Shown one piece after another: positions 4,313-19,146 of a DNA stretch of 64,000 bases (position 1 is its first letter; each line of letters opens with the position of its first letter). The DNA is from Candidatus Pacearchaeota archaeon. GTDB taxonomy: Archaea; Nanobdellota; Nanobdellia; Pacearchaeales; GW2011-AR1. The notes under the pieces were generated by a model. That model ran no database searches. It worked only from the letters and a program-made list of their open reading frames with translations, and was not told the DNA's origin. Location: positions 3,346 to 67,345 of the forward strand of contig JACOYL010000009.1 of assembly GCA_016181895.1 (NCBI GenBank), given 5' to 3'. Position numbers and translations under genes: made by a program.

Positions 4313-4607
4313 GTCTTCCTTTTCTGTGCATTAATCTTACTCTCGTTGAATTGTGAGTTAAACAATGTTTTGCATCACATTTTCTGACTTCATCATCGTA
4401 TCTTGGTACAAGCCCCGTTCTGCTATTTTTAGAGAAATTATATCCAATTAACACCCTTTTTCTAGGACTTCTCCCCATCCCTTCAATCGTTGGTAAATCA
4501 ATTTCTACAGGAACTCTTGAATTTAACTCCATAAATCCATAATATATCTCATCACCTATAATTACTTCAACTTCATATTCTATTGGTTTTTTATAATCAT
4601 AAACCAT
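4293..4607 (-). CDS. Hypothetical protein
   Basis: ORF 4293-4619. Met5 (4607) lies 1 nt after the uS2 stop codon, suggesting coupling. No motif recognised. Confidence 0.4.
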   Translation of the reverse strand: MVYDYKKPIEYEVEVIIGDEIYYGFMELNSRVPVEIDLPTIEGMGRSPRKRVLIGYNFSKNSRTGLVPRYDDEVRKCDAKHCLTHNSTRVRLMHRKGRLAKLLN

Positions 4608-4608
4608 C

Positions 4609-5544
4609 TTAATACACAACAGGCACCTCCAATTCTTCCTTCATCCACCAATCCATGTCGGGAATCCTGTCGATTGCGTCGATTCCTCGGGCTTTGCAAT
4701 ATCCTCTTGCGAGCAGGTAAAAAATCAAGCCCAAACTCTTGGAACTTTTGTTGTTTCCTATTATTACCTTGTCGGCGCCCTTTGCAAAATTGTTCGTGTC
4801 GCAAATCATCAAAACTTTTTTGTGGACATTGAGGGTGTCATGCAATGCATTTTTGTCAAGCCATGAATCAGTAACAATTGTAAGTTCATTTTCCATGAAT
4901 GTCGGAAGGTTTGTGTTTGTCAGGATTCCGGCGGGATATTTTTTCGTGAAAACTCTTATTCCCGTTAACTTTGAAAACATCTCCGCGGCGTTCCATCCGG
5001 TTTGCCTCTTGCACACGAGAATTATTTCCTCCGGATTGAACTTTGAAATAAATTCTATGGCTTCTTTTATTTTCTCGTCGATTATGTTTGTGTCGAAAAT
5101 CGCCAAGCCGTCCGCTCTCCGACGATAAACAAAGGGTTTCATGTCGGGAGTCACTGCTCTTTTGCCGATGTAAATTCCTGACTTGACATATTCTTCAAGG
5201 GGAATGAGCATTTCTGTTCTTTTCTTTGCCTTGACTTTTTCTTTCAGCTCTTCTGTCTTCGGTTCCAAAATCTGCTCCGAGAGTTTTTTCGCCCTTTCTA
5301 TAAGTTCTTTTTTCTTTTCCTCGATTGTTTTCTTTTCCTTTCCCGAAATCTCTGTTTCAAGCGATTCAAGTTCCGCAAGTTTTTCCTCTTCCTTGGAAAA
5401 TTCTTCTTTTTTTGCCTTGGGGGATTTCCTTGAAATTTTCTTTTTATTCTTTCCTTCTATTTTTTCAACAATTTCCTCGACAACTTCCTCTGCTTTTTCC
5501 AAACCCTCTTCAACCTTTTCCTTAATCTCATCAATAATTGCCAT
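4609..5544 (-). CDS. rps2: Ribosomal protein uS2 with a ~112-aa K/E-rich N-terminal extension
   Basis: The C-terminal ~200 aa ('GIYIGKRAVTPDMKPFVYRRRADGLAIFD...VCKRQTGWNA...ICDTNN') is canonical uS2. The N-terminal 112 aa are low-complexity K/E. Confidence 0.9.
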   Translation of the reverse strand: MAIIDEIKEKVEEGLEKAEEVVEEIVEKIEGKNKKKISRKSPKAKKEEFSKEEEKLAELESLETEISGKEKKTIEEKKKELIERAKKLSEQILEPKTEELKEKVKAKKRTEMLIPLEEYVKSGIYIGKRAVTPDMKPFVYRRRADGLAIFDTNIIDEKIKEAIEFISKFNPEEIILVCKRQTGWNAAEMFSKLTGIRVFTKKYPAGILTNTNLPTFMENELTIVTDSWLDKNALHDTLNVHKKVLMICDTNNFAKGADKVIIGNNKSSKSLGLIFYLLARGYCKARGIDAIDRIPDMDWWMKEELEVPVVY

Positions 5545-14292: not shown

Positions 14293-14540
14293 TTTGAATC
14301 TTCCCCTGAAAAAACAGCTTCTAATTTAACTAAATTTTTCCCTGCTCTGCTAAACATTATATTATTAAATACGGGATAAATACTTTCTATTTCTTGTCTA
14401 ATTTTTATAGGTAATTTTTCTCTTGCTTCTAAATCTAGGGTTTCTCCATTATGAGTTAAAAAAAATTCTGTTCTGTTACCATATTCTCGAGGTTTTATTT
14501 CTACTCTTAATATATATTCATTTCCCATATTACTTTGCAA
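14289..14540 (-). CDS. Hypothetical protein (83 aa) inserted between psmA and SBDS
   Basis: Its stop codon overlaps the SBDS ATG (ATGA). Met5 (14528) follows the psmA stop codon. Confidence 0.4.
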   Translation of the reverse strand: MQSNMGNEYILRVEIKPREYGNRTEFFLTHNGETLDLEAREKLPIKIRQEIESIYPVFNNIMFSRAGKNLVKLEAVFSGEDSK

Positions 14541-15252
14541 AATTCTTTAATTCGTTTCCCTCGAGTCTTGTGATTTTTCCCTTATCATCGATGTAAACAA
14601 CCTCGAATTTCTCGATGTTGAATTTCGTGCCTTGAATTTCCTTGAAAACATCAAGAACTGTTTTGACGCCTTTCTTTATCGTCAAGTCGTGCTTGTAAAC
14701 TTCCCTCAGCTTTTCCTTTATTTTGTCGTCGTTTTCCCCGATTGCGTTCGCGTGATACGAGAAATAATTTCCGGAGACATTGCTTACGTACAACTCCGGT
14801 TTCTTTCCGTTCATTCCCGCGAGCATGAAGAAAACCCCGAAAGGCCTTGCGCCCCCGTATTGCGTGAATTGCTGTTTTATGTTCGCGATTTCCTTTATGA
14901 CAAGTTCCGGTTCTATGGGAGAATCGTAAGTCACCCTGTGTTGTTGCGAAATTACCTGCGCCCTTTCAACAAGAACTCTCGCGTCCGCGACAACGCCTGC
15001 TGCTGAGGCAATTATGTGCGAATCGATTTCGTAAACTTTGTTCGCGGATTTTGAAACAATCAATTTGTCGTCTATTCTCTTGTCCGCAAGAATGAAAACT
15101 CCGTCTGTGCAAGCCATGCCGACGCTGGAACTTCCCCACTTTGTCGCCTTTTCCGCATATTCAACCTGAATTATCGTTCCTTCGGGAGAAAACATCGTGG
15201 CAGTCCTGTCATAGCCCATTGCCTGATGCTGCATATCCATAGGTAAATCCAT
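14530..15252 (-). CDS. psmA: Proteasome subunit alpha
   Basis: 'GYDRTATMFSPEGTIIQVEYAEKA'. Confidence 0.9.
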   Translation of the reverse strand: MDLPMDMQHQAMGYDRTATMFSPEGTIIQVEYAEKATKWGSSSVGMACTDGVFILADKRIDDKLIVSKSANKVYEIDSHIIASAAGVVADARVLVERAQVISQQHRVTYDSPIEPELVIKEIANIKQQFTQYGGARPFGVFFMLAGMNGKKPELYVSNVSGNYFSYHANAIGENDDKIKEKLREVYKHDLTIKKGVKTVLDVFKEIQGTKFNIEKFEVVYIDDKGKITRLEGNELKNFAK

Positions 15253-15302
15253 TATAAAAAATTCCTATTTTTTATTTTGACTTCTGTCATTATGCAACCT
15301 CC

Positions 15303-15362
15303 TGTTGCGATGCTTTGTTTCTCCCCGATGCGTATGGGAATCGCAATGCTAATCGCTTTGTA
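15303..15362. repeat. Partial copy of the MITE-like repeat core
   Basis: 'gttgcgatgc...ccgatgcgtatgggaatcgcaatgctaatcgctttg' resembles the cores of 32625-32820 and 46317-46437. Confidence 0.5.
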
Positions 15363-15523
15363 TGCTTGAAAAATTTATTTTTCATTTTCTAATTTCAGAG
15401 AAATTTATAATGTGTAAATTTCCTTTTCTTTCTCCGTACAAAAAACATAGAAATGGGGAATTTAAAAGGTTTTTGGTGTGTCCTTACACAAATTATTATA
15501 AATAATAATTTCTGTTTGCTTCA

Positions 15524-16384
15524 ATGAAAATTGGTGTTGTCGGAGTCGGGATTGTTGGCGGGGCTACTGCGGAAGTCCTAAAAAATGTCCATGAATTATT
15601 CTTATATGATAGATTCAAGCAGGAACACAATTCTCCGGAAAACTTGCGCAATCTTGTTAAAAATTCCGATGTGATATTCATTTGCGTTCCTACGCCGATG
15701 AAAATTACGGGAGAGATAGACTATTCAGACATACATAATTCAATGGACCAATTGATTGAAGAATTGATTAAAATAGGAAGAAACCCGCAAGACATTCTTA
15801 TTGTAATAAGGTCAACCGCGGTTTCCGGAGCCACGGACAAATTGGCATATAAATATCCGTTTAGATTTGCGTTTAATCCGGAGTTTTTGAGGGAAAAACA
15901 TGCCTTTGACGACATGAAAAATACTGACAGGATTGTAATCGGCGCCAATGATGAAAGAAGCACAAATCAATTGCGTGACATTTACAAACCGCTTTTTCCA
16001 AACGCCAAATATTCAACAGTAACGAGAAAAGAAGCCGAAATGATAAAATATGCCGCAAATGTCGTCCTTGCCTCTCAAGTTACAGTCGCAAATGAAATAT
16101 TTCAAATCTGCAAGGCGGTCGGCGTGGATTATGATATTGTAAAGAATGCAATTTTGCTTGACAAAAGAATTGGAAGCAACATAGAAGTTCCAGGTCCCGA
16201 CGGCGATTTTGGATTCGGCGGCAAATGTTTTCCAAAGGACTTGAAAGCATTGATAAGACTTGCGCAAGAACACGAGTATGACCCCTATCTTCTTCAGGAA
16301 ATATGGAGAACAAATGAAAGAATCAGAAAGAACAAAGATTGGCTGAAAATCAAGGGGGCAACTTCAAAAAATAATTATTTGTGA
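15524..16384 (+). CDS. UDP-glucose/GDP-mannose dehydrogenase family protein lacking the C-terminal UDP-binding domain
   Basis: 'MKIGVVGVGIVGGA' Rossmann motif and the catalytic 'GFGGKCFPKDL'. Ends at 286 aa, immediately before the duplicated pop5 3' fragment. Confidence 0.7.
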   Translation: MKIGVVGVGIVGGATAEVLKNVHELFLYDRFKQEHNSPENLRNLVKNSDVIFICVPTPMKITGEIDYSDIHNSMDQLIEELIKIGRNPQDILIVIRSTAVSGATDKLAYKYPFRFAFNPEFLREKHAFDDMKNTDRIVIGANDERSTNQLRDIYKPLFPNAKYSTVTRKEAEMIKYAANVVLASQVTVANEIFQICKAVGVDYDIVKNAILLDKRIGSNIEVPGPDGDFGFGGKCFPKDLKALIRLAQEHEYDPYLLQEIWRTNERIRKNKDWLKIKGATSKNNYL

Positions 16385-16385
16385 C

Positions 16386-16420
16386 TTCCCCTCAATCCCT
16401 TCAACGTCCCGCTGACTTTC
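16386..16420. repeat. Direct repeat DR1: duplicate of the pop5 3' end
   Basis: 'ttcccctcaatcccttcaacgtcccgctgactttc' matches 17113-17147 at 34 of 35 positions. Confidence 0.9.
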
Positions 16421-16483
16421 CATGAAGGTGATGTGCCCTGATTTCTTTTCGCGGATTTTGTTTTAATTCATATAGATATTTTG

Positions 16484-16831
16484 TTATATTAACTTAGAAA
16501 ATTCTTCTTTTACTTTTGATAAAGTTATTTTATTTACTTTAGCAATTCTCTTGTTGATAATGCTTTTATTCAGAGTAAATAATTTGTCAATCTTAATCCT
16601 GCTTTTTGCAGGTATTCTGCCATTTTTCAAATCACTATTATCAATTAAAACAGAATATTTTGCGTCTTTCAAATTTGAAGTAATTCCGCAAGTAATAACG
16701 TCATCAGATGTCTTATTGGCAATATCCTTGGACAATATTAAAACAGGTCTTTGTTTTATGTTGCTTAAATCAGAAAAAGGGAAGGGCACAACAACAATTT
16801 CTCCTTGTTCATACATCATTCCATATTTCAT
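16484..16831 (-). CDS. mazF: MazF/PemK-family toxin
   Basis: 'GEIVVVPFPFSDLSNIKQRPVLILS'. Confidence 0.8.
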   Translation of the reverse strand: MKYGMMYEQGEIVVVPFPFSDLSNIKQRPVLILSKDIANKTSDDVITCGITSNLKDAKYSVLIDNSDLKNGRIPAKSRIKIDKLFTLNKSIINKRIAKVNKITLSKVKEEFSKLI

Positions 16832-17042
16832 CGTATTTATTATTCCATAATTTCTTGGCTACTTTCTCAGAATGTTTTAACAAATCAGAGAAATCTTCTT
16901 TCCTAAGCTTTTTAATTACAATGGAATTATCGCTCTGTGTTATGATAAGTTCATCTCCCTGTTCAATATTTAAGATTTCCCGAATTTTAATAGGTAACGA
17001 AATCTGCCCTTTATCTGTAACTTTGATAATTTTAGTTTCCAT
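16809..17042 (-). CDS. mazE: AbrB/MazE-type antitoxin
   Basis: 'KVTDKGQISLPIKIREILNIEQGDELII'. Overlaps mazF. Confidence 0.75.
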   Translation of the reverse strand: METKIIKVTDKGQISLPIKIREILNIEQGDELIITQSDNSIVIKKLRKEDFSDLLKHSEKVAKKLWNNKYDEIWNDV

Positions 17043-17107
17043 AAATAAGTAAGAATTTCCTTACTTATAAATTTTTCTGTCTTGAGATTAAAACTTTAAT
17101 TATATAA

Positions 17108-17386
17108 TCATTTTCCTCTCAATCCCTTCAACGTCCCGCTGACTTTCTTCACTTCAATTTTCTCGGGAAAAACAGCCAGCGACGCGCGGACTTCATTAAT
17201 CACTTCTCTGTTGATGCAAATAATCGCGCTTTCATTTTCAGTCTTGATGAAACTCAATCCTGATTTTGACATCCCTAAAATCCCAAGAAAATCAAGAATT
17301 GCTTTTTCAATATTTTCTCTTAAGTTTTTCCCAATAACAAGAAGATATCTTTTATTCTCACGCATTGTCGGTTTCAGGGTTTTCAT
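17108..17386 (-). CDS. rnp2: RNase P protein component 2 (Pop5/Rpp14 homolog)
   Basis: 'LKPTMRENKRYLLVIG...' N-terminal motif. Small size. The canonical neighbour of psmA in the archaeal superoperon. Confidence 0.7.
   Translation of the reverse strand: MKTLKPTMRENKRYLLVIGKNLRENIEKAILDFLGILGMSKSGLSFIKTENESAIICINREVINEVRASLAVFPEKIEVKKVSGTLKGLRGK
17113..17147. repeat. Direct repeat DR2: last 11 codons of pop5
   Basis: Partner of 16386-16420. Confidence 0.9.
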
Positions 17387-17416
17387 GAATAAAACAAGAA
17401 AAAAGAGTTATTAAAA

Positions 17417-17731
17417 TTATCTTGTATTTCTATTCCTATAATGTATGCATATCTTATATCTTTCATCACCATCGTCATCCATACAATACAAGCTTAATTC
17501 CATCGGAGATTGCTTAGCGGATATGACTGAATTTAACGGCTCAATTTTTAATTCGGCATCTTCCGCGAGAATTCCACAATAATAAAATGAATCTCCCGCC
17601 TTTCTCAAATGAGGACATTTTACTTTTACCTCCTCTTCAAGTTTTTTCGTCAAGGCTTTTTCTTTTTCCGTCACCAAATCATCAACAGTTCTTATATCAT
17701 CCCATGTGTTCCACAATAACATAAAAATCAT
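17417..17731 (-). CDS. Hypothetical Cys-containing protein
   Basis: 104-aa ORF with 5 Cys ('KCPHL...YYCG...YCMDD...KICIHY'). Confidence 0.4.
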   Translation of the reverse strand: MIFMLLWNTWDDIRTVDDLVTEKEKALTKKLEEEVKVKCPHLRKAGDSFYYCGILAEDAELKIEPLNSVISAKQSPMELSLYCMDDDGDERYKICIHYRNRNTR

Positions 17732-17799
17732 TGCAGGATTTTATTTATAAAAATTATTGTAGTATAAACTTTTAAACCACTTTCGCCTTTTTCATAGAG

Positions 17800-19146
17800 G
17801 TGAAAAAAATGGAAGTTTTTAGCATTGGAGGTTACAGCGAAGTCGGAAAAAACATGACTGCTGTAAAAATCAAAGATGATGTTTTTCTTTTCGACTGCGG
17901 TTTGTACATTCCCGCCGTGATTGAGTTGCAGGAGGAAAAAATCCAGGATTACGGCGAAAGGCAATTGAGAGGCAAGCAGGCATTGCCCGATGATTTGATT
18001 CTTGACAAACTTGGATTGCGAAATAAAGTCAGGGCGATTTTTCTTTCTCATGGGCATCTAGACCATATTGGCGCCGTGCCTTTCATTGCATACAGATACA
18101 ACTGTCCGATTTTTGGCTCTCCATTCACTATTTCTGTTTTGAAACGGACAATGGAAGACGAAAAAAAAAGAATCCCAAACAAAATAATCACAATTGAGTC
18201 GGATTCATCTCATACGATAAATGGAAAATCCGGAGATTACGAGGTTGAATTGATTCACATGACTCATTCAATACCTCACACGACAATGATTGCCTTGCAT
18301 ACCAAAGAAGGAATTGTCGTCTATGGAAACGATTTCAAAATTGACAACACCCCTGTTTTGGAAAGTCCGCCGAATTACAACGCCTTGAAAAGAATTTCAA
18401 AACAAGGCATCAAGGTTGCAATTCTTGATTCTCTTTACTGCAGTTCCGAAACAAAAACACCGAGCGAGAATCTGGCGAGAAACATGGTTAAGGAAATTTT
18501 CTCCGGAATGCACGGAAGCAAAAATGCGATTTTTGTCTCGACTTTTTCCTCGCACATTGCAAGATTGAAAAGCATTGTTGAATTCGGAAAAAAACTCGAC
18601 AGGGAAATTTTCTTCATAGGTAGGAGTTTGAACAGATACACGCAGGCGTCAAACGACATCAATCTTTTCAGTTTCAAAAACCAAGTAAGAATTGTGACTT
18701 ACAAAAATCAGGTTGCCTCTGCATTGAAAAAAATAAGCAGTCAAAGAGACAAATTTCTTGTCATTTGCACAGGGCATCAGGGAGAACCGGGAAGCATTTT
18801 GGAAAGATTGTCGAGAAAAAAACTTCCGTTTGAATTTCGCAGGGGAGATAATCTTGTTTTTTCCTCGAAGACAATTCCGGTTCCAATCAACATTAAAAAC
18901 AAGGGGGAGATGGACAAGAGATTCAAGAAATACGGAGTCAGGATTTTCGACGAAGTTCATGTCTCGGGGCACGGAGGAAGGGAAGACATAAGAGAACTGA
19001 TTGAAACGCTGAATCCCGAGCATGTAATTCCTTCCCACGGCTCTTATCAGCAATTGCTTCCCATGAGGGAACTTGGAAAAGAACTCGGCTACAAAATGGA
19101 CAAGAATTTTCATCTGATGCAGGACGGGGAAAAAATAAGTATTTGA
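17800..19146 (+). CDS. rnj: Archaeal RNase J (beta-CASP metallo-beta-lactamase)
   Basis: 'FLSHGHLDHIGAVP' (HxHxDH) and 'VHVSGHG'. 448 aa. 'GAGGTGA' SD-like element upstream. Confidence 0.85.
   Translation: MKKMEVFSIGGYSEVGKNMTAVKIKDDVFLFDCGLYIPAVIELQEEKIQDYGERQLRGKQALPDDLILDKLGLRNKVRAIFLSHGHLDHIGAVPFIAYRYNCPIFGSPFTISVLKRTMEDEKKRIPNKIITIESDSSHTINGKSGDYEVELIHMTHSIPHTTMIALHTKEGIVVYGNDFKIDNTPVLESPPNYNALKRISKQGIKVAILDSLYCSSETKTPSENLARNMVKEIFSGMHGSKNAIFVSTFSSHIARLKSIVEFGKKLDREIFFIGRSLNRYTQASNDINLFSFKNQVRIVTYKNQVASALKKISSQRDKFLVICTGHQGEPGSILERLSRKKLPFEFRRGDNLVFSSKTIPVPINIKNKGEMDKRFKKYGVRIFDEVHVSGHGGREDIRELIETLNPEHVIPSHGSYQQLLPMRELGKELGYKMDKNFHLMQDGEKISI

Follow-up and report, generated by a model that had tools for sequence, protein, structure and literature searches.

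Behind the 3' end of pop5, the gene for protein component 2 of RNase P, a Candidatus Pacearchaeota archaeon carries a 35-bp repeat of the gene's own tail, and this repeat most likely marks a recombination hot spot where small addiction modules come in, are overwritten and disappear. The locus lies in a 64,000-nt stretch of DNA (the window; contig C10, positions 3346–67345) of a 736-kb assembly in 24 contigs that is approximately 90% complete and is here labeled G000. A preliminary description of the window saw a mazEF toxin–antitoxin cassette flanked by the footprint of its own site-specific integration. This picture is replaced here by that of a hot spot with several layers, where most of an older relE module has been overwritten. 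Host homologous and microhomology recombination, with the conserved end of pop5 as its anchor, is the probable agent of the underlying events. Relatives are referred to by G numbers when they are genomes and by L numbers when they are loci or contigs.

The Duplicated Tail of pop5

The gene pop5 (17108–17386, minus strand) encodes a protein of 92 amino acids that ends in KVSGTLKGLRGK before the stop. On its own the sequence matches the Pfam family Rpp14/Pop5 under the cut-off (E 3.6e-4), while a profile built from eight orthologues matches archaeal RNase P component 2 in the PDB, with 6K0A as best hit (E 2.3e-8) next to 2AV5 and 2CZV. The 6K0A match spans the full length of the protein including the terminal VSGT strand, and the gene order rrp4–sbds–psmA–gap–pop5–rnj (RNase J) is kept across the family. 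Profile similarity and conserved genomic position together identify the 92-amino acid gene as pop5.

Two direct repeats at 16386–16420 and 17113–17147 are 34/35 identical and share an exact core of 30 nt, as the preliminary description had stated. Among 100 shuffles of the window that preserve dinucleotides, not one gave two such matches. In the entire 736-kb assembly the repeat occurs twice, both times at the pop5 locus, so that the suggested search for further copies does not reveal a genome-wide motif. The copy proximal to the body of pop5 (17113–17147, minus strand) is the working tail, as was claimed; it covers codons 81–91 and encodes KVSGTLKGLRG, with the last lysine and the stop of pop5 coming next (17108–17112). 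The distal copy (16386–16420, minus strand) is a pseudo-tail that reads, in the same frame, KVSGTLKGLRGSHK and a stop down to position 16375. Its final codons are antisense to the last 10 nt of ugd, a convergent gene whose stop lies at 16382–16384, and the earlier observation that this frame runs into the ugd stop region is thus correct. The sole mismatch between the copies is a synonymous one, AGG in the distal copy vs. AGA, located 4 nt inside the 3' edge of the repeat. The two copies have different surroundings: the proximal one is followed by AAATGA and a flank resembling that of a sister species, the distal one directly by the end of ugd. The inverted arms typical of a recombinase core were not found in the repeat, and its exact 30-mer core had no match in collections of metagenome contigs and viral contigs.

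Five further sequencing runs yielded Logan contigs that follow the order of the window through one junction or both, and one of these contigs, 1.1 kb long, contains both copies of the repeat. Since these independent contigs agree across the junctions, the arrangement is real and not an artefact of assembly. An apparent divergence at the end of a Logan contig, which could have been an alternative allele, turned out to be Nextera adapter sequence.

The Empty Site in a Sister Species

The preliminary description proposed to look for an empty site with pop5 directly abutting ugd, and such a site is present in a sister species represented by four metagenome contigs (L078–L081). These have the layout psmA(-), ugd(+), pop5(-), RNase J(+), with 46 nt between the stops of ugd and pop5. 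Amino acid identity between the two species is 88% for the ugd-like protein, for which this is the closest homologue, 87% for PsmA and 79% for Pop5. In blastn, positions 2544–4366 of L078 correspond to 14525–16388 of the window and positions 4393–4720 to 17087–17420, which leaves approximately 700 bases, roughly 16389–17086, as extra DNA in G000. The position of the insertion at the end of pop5, which is one part of the earlier claim of integration into a gene 3' end, is thereby supported.

The proximal copy together with the 21 nt after the stop aligns with the pop5 end of the sister species (GLRGK and stop, then AATTAAA.TTTAAT). By blastn and pairwise alignment this flank (17087–17107, minus strand) reads AATTAAAGTTTTAAT, compared to AATTAAAAATTTAAT in the sister. 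As both the proximal copy and its flank are sister-like, this copy may be the ancestral end of the gene, and the copy on the ugd side would then be the extra one. A decayed tail copy was also sought in the 46-nt spacer of the sister species, with marginal results (p 0.02–0.25, depending on the strain). The 90% identity clusters of Pop5 and of MazE have one member each.

A Toxin Gene Relic and the Joints of the Distal Copy

The 692 bp between the repeat copies had been described as holding only mazE and mazF. They also hold a relic of approximately 50 nt of a RelE/ParE-family toxin gene (16417–16470, minus strand), which in another frame reads LKQNPRKEIRAHHLHG and whose fusion point with the distal repeat falls within a GAAAG microhomology. 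Aligned with residues 25–52 of an 85-amino acid toxin of G003, the closest genome by core genes, the relic reaches a BLOSUM62 score of 76, a value not attained in any of 3000 shuffles. The G003 toxin matches PF05016 (ParE_toxin) and is the only strong match of the relic among all loci compared and the genome. The toxin gene is intact and lies immediately behind pop5 in G003 as well as in L096, a metagenome contig whose PsmA is 95% identical to that of G000 in amino acids. At the DNA level the relic and the intact L096 gene are 85.7% identical over 49 nt.

The joint from relic to tail has CTTCATG followed by GAAAGTCAGCGGG, at a point where the intact relE of L096 continues with CTTCATGGAAAACTGGCGGGG. 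The toxin gene and the pop5 tail have a homeologous patch of approximately 20 nt in common (GGAAA....GCGGG), and the joint falls in 4–5 nt of identity within it. The joint from tail to ugd, between GGGGAAG and TCAC, lies at a GAAG microhomology and coincides with GAAGTTCAC of the sister species. Judged from their sequences, these joints appear to be of the kind left by illegitimate or microhomology-mediated recombination. Because the relic is fused to the distal copy at a microhomology, the duplication is tied to the older cassette or to a later rearrangement and not to the arrival of mazEF. The other part of the earlier claim, that site-specific integration of mazEF created the repeats, is therefore not upheld.

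The mazEF Cassette

The cassette is a unit of 608 bp (16476–17083, minus strand) consisting of a promoter/operator region, mazE and mazF, and its borders are defined by comparison: from 41 nt before the mazE ATG to 8 nt past the mazF stop it is 81–82% identical in DNA to cassettes on two further DPANN contigs (L064 and L065), and the match covers exactly this unit. The genes themselves are approximately 81% identical, while in the 26–29 nt ahead of the mazE start codon the identity to both contigs is 100%. G + C content is 28–31% in the unit compared to 36–48% in its neighbors. The cassette DNA is absent from the four genomes of the same genus.

mazE (16809–17042, minus strand; PF04014, E 1.3e-12) lies upstream of mazF (16484–16831, minus strand; PF02452, E 8.1e-18, profile positions 1–107 of 109), and the two open reading frames (ORFs) overlap by 23 nt (16809–16831). 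The region before mazE (17046–17071, minus strand) carries a palindrome, TAAGTAAG-N6-CTTACTTA (17046–17067), which is a putative MazE operator on the grounds of its conservation and of a hairpin with a z score of -3.2. It overlaps a TATA box (TTTATAA, 17065–17071) approximately 26 nt upstream of the mazE ATG, and the conserved region as a whole would represent the promoter plus the MazE operator. A paralogous mazEF on another contig (C20:26485–27100) has the same arrangement, with the operator palindrome TAAGTAA...TTACTTA over the TATA box, and the genome holds at least four mazEF-like loci. A full-length PemK/MazF toxin downstream of an AbrB/SpoVT-type MazE, overlapping ORFs and a putative palindromic operator are all features of the MazEF (PemIK) family, and 511 homologues of MazF were found, many of which bear that name. 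The pair can thus be classed as an ordinary type II toxin–antitoxin system with a predicted MazF RNase and an AbrB-type MazE, and the genes themselves appear to show nothing unusual.

The relatives of the unit on L064 and L065 are located in toxin–antitoxin arrays. On L064 (1–5472) and L065 (1–3149) MazE-PIN, MazEF, VapB-ParE, HicBA and DUF2283/DUF4258 modules stand in tandem, split by repeats of 32–96 nt that copy the end of a flanking gene.

Variable Cargo and Displaced Tails in Relatives

The gap between pop5 and psmA is variable within the family. It measures at most 190 bp in 11 of 24 family loci. The remaining loci hold cargo of various kinds, among it PIN, ParE-like and DUF4258/DUF2283 pairs as well as one restriction-modification pair. 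In a family genome (L051) the first 1.5 kb past pop5 holds ORFs that look, by sequence appearance, like a restriction endonuclease and a DNA methyltransferase; these two ORFs would be another addiction-type module at the pop5 hot spot. No recombinase was detected in any of the gaps downstream of pop5 that were examined.

In G003 and L096 a second pop5 tail is found approximately 220 nt beyond the intact relE-like gene, and the two modules are orthologous, displaced tail included (74.7% identity over 640 nt). The displaced tail of G003 reads AAG GTT TCG GGA ACT CTG AAG GGA TTG AGA and its working tail AGA GTA AGC GGG ACG CTG AAA GGG TTG AGA. They differ at 7 of 10 codons, and six of these differences are synonymous, including AGC vs. 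TCG for serine, with one K/R replacement. As the differences are mainly synonymous, the copy must have evolved in a working pop5 of another allele and is not an in-place duplication. The displaced tail of L096 is decaying, with K changed to M and the stop lost. The notion of the preliminary description that an element brings its own gene end fits these displaced tails, in which almost all differences are synonymous. The same contig carries, at 2170–2250, a pop5 with an in-frame insertion of approximately 22 codons in mid-gene (VITQVKIRSERIGASEHRETLKD).

An independent case comes from G177, a genome of another genus, in which a module of 199- and 51-amino acid genes lies between two pop5 tails that share 26 identical nt, after which they are still homologous but have diverged (KGLGIK and stop vs. 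RGLGMKNGN and stop). The same pop5–psmA gap of G177 (locus L061, 3676–4508) also contains a direct duplication of approximately 200 nt (97–100% identity) of the 5' coding end of psmA and its upstream region, which brackets a 134-amino acid ORF.

A scan of 401 family genomes with a degenerate pattern found the tail motif in 169 and twice in three, with 0 hits for the reversed-pattern control. A peptide scan of 66 loci found a second tail downstream on the same strand in five (control 0). Four of these cases are solid, namely the window, G003, G177 and L096, while the second tail of L027 (6/9, inside a helix-turn-helix gene) is likely a chance match. Because the relE module is common to G000, G003 and L096, these cases amount to no fewer than two independent origins (one in the relE clade, one in G177) and not to three. 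We propose that the duplication in G000 includes a later rearrangement beyond the origin it shares with the relE clade.

For the invariant serine of the Pop5 KVSGTL motif, some close relatives use AGY codons and others TCN codons, and no single synonymous change interconverts the two classes. This split would be accounted for if the gene end were often replaced by recombination. A link between the AGC class and the presence of a cassette was considered and dropped, as close relatives are mixed, and no obvious mosaic pattern was seen within pop5 in three members of the genus.

The Same Scar at Other Genes of the Genome

The arrangement behind pop5 is not unique in G000. The genome holds 18 exact direct repeats of at least 20 nt spaced 150–3000 bp apart, and 0 inverted ones. 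When the last seven amino acids plus stop of each gene were searched for within 3 kb, five downstream matches on the same strand were found, compared to 0, 0 and 0 in three controls. A second mazEF (C5:11300–12026) is closed by the displaced last 7–9 codons of its upstream gene, with two differences between the tails. A relBE-like pair behind rps7 (C11:35040–35505) and another behind the upstream gene on C16 (549–1013) are likewise closed by the displaced last 7–9 codons, with five differences each. On C9 (23427–24261) a vapBC pair, with a 79-amino acid antitoxin and a PIN toxin, follows a gene for an ftsY-like signal recognition particle GTPase and lies between two exact 28-nt copies of the 3' end of this gene, stop included, upstream of which the KKK codons differ only synonymously. 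On C21 the tail copy lies 48 nt downstream without a cassette between.

All paired-tail differences at the C5, rps7 and C16 loci (2, 5 and 5) are synonymous, a pattern that is hard to reconcile with neutral decay. Diverged-allele tails with synonymous-site differences occur at G003, L096, G177, rps7 and C16, whereas the window shows a single synonymous difference. The repeat sequences at the different loci are unrelated and their lengths range from approximately 21 to 200 nt, which argues against one site-specific recombinase.

A 200-amino acid NYN-domain gene (C7:20167–20874) lies between two 25-nt copies of the start of the downstream gene (ATGAACCTCC). As the scar is here at a gene start and the cargo is an NYN gene, such scars are not confined to 3' ends or to classical toxin–antitoxin pairs.

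Neighboring Genes and Other Features of the Locus

The conserved far border of the variable gap is psmA (proteasome alpha subunit; 14530–15252, minus strand). Between psmA and pop5 lies ugd, a short-form UDP-glucose/GDP-mannose dehydrogenase-like gene (15524–16384, plus strand), which is convergent with pop5. The ugd-like gene is accessory and is found within glycosylation clusters in other genomes. Truncation of ugd by the insertion was considered and rejected, since its 286 amino acids are the normal length for the family. A dispersed repeat lies in the spacer between psmA and ugd (15303–15395). It recurs on contigs C8, C18, C19 and C23, where identity reaches 96% over 83 nt, and is probably a member of a family of miniature inverted-repeat transposable elements.

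On the other side of pop5, between it and the RNase J gene, a 104-amino acid ORF with CxxC-type cysteines and without a Pfam match occupies 17417–17731 (minus strand). It is absent in G003 and in the sister species, where the spacing between pop5 and rnj is 60–124 nt, and it looks like a further accessory insertion. A search of window positions 15000–17900 against Rfam gave nothing close to any gathering score, and a scan for promoters and terminators of the bacterial type was uninformative.

Mechanism and Alternative Explanations

The locus can be read as three layers. The first would be a RelE/ParE-type cassette already there in the lineage that G000 shares with G003 and L096; in these two relatives it has stayed intact, and a displaced pop5 tail closes it. 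The second layer would be the remnant in G000, in which approximately 50 nt of the toxin gene are left, joined to a near-perfect pop5 tail that in turn joins ugd at GAAG. The third, the intact 608-bp mazEF between the stop-proximal flank of pop5 and the relic, is most likely a later arrival. In each event incoming or sister DNA would be anchored by homology to the gene end, and the other joint would form at a microhomology. Possible routes are Campbell-type or unequal crossover, or homology-facilitated illegitimate recombination, none of which would involve a dedicated integrase. A spare tail would be left behind because only those products survive in which the essential C-terminal strand of Pop5 (KVSGTL) is intact, and the addiction effect of mazEF would keep the islet in place.

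Several observations weigh against this reading. Campbell integration, unequal crossover and duplication by a staggered cut each predict the same stop and flank after the distal copy as after the proximal one, which is not what is found. As no one-step model fits, at least one extra deletion or conversion has to be assumed, and we do not claim an exact order of events. The copies in the window are 34/35 identical, so that the window alone carries no signal of a foreign allele and the copy could have originated in place. The argument from synonymous differences at the other loci of the genome is partly circular, as these loci were found by their peptide identity. Within the species itself no allele that lacks the insertion or is arranged differently was seen, all Logan contigs being occupied and collinear. 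In addition, Xer-like tyrosine recombinases of 270–290 amino acids are encoded in 34 of 41 relatives, including all four genomes of the same genus; the absence of a recombinase from G000 may thus be an assembly gap, and an enzyme acting in trans is possible.

The alternative that survives best, although we judge it unlikely, is that the distal copy was made within the chromosome and that mazEF arrived separately by illegitimate insertion, with no gene end being imported. The duplication could have occurred by unequal crossover or template switching between the relE patch and the pop5 tail, or by a transposition-like staggered break that leaves a true long target duplication. The near-identity of the copies speaks for such an origin, given that the resident relE module is old (approximately 71–86% identical to its relatives), as do the joint of relic and tail inside the patch common to relE and pop5 and the joint of the tail to ugd at GAAG. 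Codon usage points in the same direction: the displaced tails of G003 and L096 use TCG or TCC for serine, whereas the distal copy of G000 has AGC like its own working tail and is therefore not simply their orthologue. However, in its simple form this explanation also predicts the same stop and flank after the distal copy and needs an additional deletion. It cannot account for the copies of diverged alleles at other loci and in relatives, which are impossible to make in place. It also overlaps with the recombination scenario favored here, since both invoke host recombination and differ only in the origin of the copy.

A second alternative, site-specific integration, would make the pop5 3' end an attB site used by a tyrosine recombinase that acted in trans or has since been deleted, leaving attL and attR around a cargo without integrase, like a cis-mobilizable remnant. 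In its favor, approximately 30–40 nt of pop5 have been duplicated with different cargo in two or more independent lineages (relE clade, G177), and the repeat has an exact 30-nt core. The copies on the cargo side in G177 and G003 look like different alleles, as ends borne by an attP site do, and relatives encode one to five Xer-like enzymes, so that here, too, a gap in the assembly may hide the recombinase of G000. Nevertheless, we regard this explanation as improbable. The preliminary description had noted that the cargo comes without an integrase, and this holds beyond the cassette: a search of the 736-kb assembly for PF00589 recombinases, the one recombinase family covered, gave no match, and no recombinase was seen in the examined gaps downstream of pop5 either. 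The empty site of the sister has one copy of the tail, but in G000 a toxin relic stands between cargo and distal copy and is joined to the latter at a microhomology, the flanks are not those expected of attL and attR, and the repeat lacks the inverted arms of a recombinase core. At least five other, unrelated gene ends of the genome bear the same scar with repeats that vary in length from approximately 21 to 200 nt, and neither the viral nor the metagenome contig collection contains the 30-mer. Finally, chance similarity or an assembly artefact, such as a graph loop through a shared k-mer, might come to mind because 30–35 nt is near common assembler k-mer sizes, but it is effectively refuted by the Logan contigs that span both junctions, one with both copies. 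The shuffles, the one-base difference and different flanks of the copies, and the same architecture in relatives also speak against it.

Relation to Known Systems

Integrase-mediated integration into the 3' ends of genes is well known, as are att-flanked remnants without integrase (cis-mobilizable elements). There, as at pop5, foreign DNA lies between direct repeats of a 3' end, the gene itself is unharmed and the site is used again. The pop5 locus differs in that no integrase was found, in its microhomology joints, and in the many unrelated gene ends and variable repeat lengths involved. Integron gene cassettes, which reportedly include those of archaeal integrons described by Ghaly et al. 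in 2022, are likewise similar in that they measure 0.5–1 kb, often carry toxin–antitoxin genes, lie in one orientation and are separated by short repeats, which may be compared to the array on L064. An integron cassette array was nevertheless rejected for the pop5 locus: there is no IntI (PF00589) match, no attC-like hairpin was detected at the distal cassette boundary, where the fold is no better than that of shuffles (z -0.35), and the separators copy host coding ends instead of being imperfect palindromes.

Closer to the present case are restriction-modification units that insert with long target duplication (Nobusato et al., 2000, cited by Furuta, Abe and Kobayashi, 2010; PMC2853133). In the latter paper, such insertions are defined by an insert of less than 20 kb that carries R and M genes, no mobility gene, direct repeats of more than 30 bp, and a single occurrence of the repeat in a related genome; in that survey no archaeal case passed the screen (Furuta et al., 2010; PMC2853133). 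The insert at the pop5 locus measures approximately 700 bp and has no mobility gene, its repeat is 35 bp long, and the sister species has one tail only. It resembles the units described there also in being a small addiction-type unit, in the frequent overlap of the repeats with the 3' end of a neighboring gene and in variable repeat lengths. However, its cargo is a type II toxin–antitoxin system and not a restriction-modification system, its host is an archaeon, the copies in relatives are diverged alleles, and the sequences after the two copies differ, so that there is no clean contiguous target duplication.

The C-terminal displacement of rhs genes offers a second parallel, for which homologous recombination with circular intermediates, without need of a recombinase, was proposed in 2009 (PMC2935791). 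In both systems incoming DNA brings a replacement gene end along with a module of the toxin/immunity type, and the old end persists downstream as an orphan; G003, L096 and G177 fit this picture of tail displacement. The pop5 locus differs from rhs as presented there in that the displaced piece comprises 11–14 codons of a housekeeping gene and leaves protein function unchanged, in that the cargo is an independent operon and not the variable tip of the same protein, and in the near-identity of the copies in the window. The pop5 scar can be seen as a variation on the known scars of long target duplication and tail displacement. Searches of one literature library for toxin–antitoxin cassettes with gene-tail duplications, in DPANN archaea or in general, found no description of such a case.

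Implications

To our knowledge, no mechanism has been established for the mobility of chromosomal toxin–antitoxin systems outside integrons and plasmids since they were labeled "mobile cassettes." The pop5 locus provides a natural series in this regard, with an empty site, an intact older cassette with a diverged tail in two relatives, and a 50-nt relic beside a newer cassette. The microhomology joints make a recombinase-free, homology-anchored route concrete enough to test, although the discovery of a trans-acting recombinase would turn the locus into an ordinary integration scar. Tentatively, and as an idea that falls somewhat short of being probable, we suggest that the minimal toxin–antitoxin operons of DPANN archaea are recombinase-free mobile cassettes that carry along a short copy of a conserved host gene end for use as a homology arm, gain entry through host recombination and push the resident tail aside. 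The C-terminal strand of Pop5 would then be one recurrent landing pad, on which successive cassettes overwrite each other, as mazEF may have done with relE in G000. The locus also shows that even in a 0.7-Mb genome the conserved exosome–proteasome neighborhood tolerates a rapid turnover of selfish modules.

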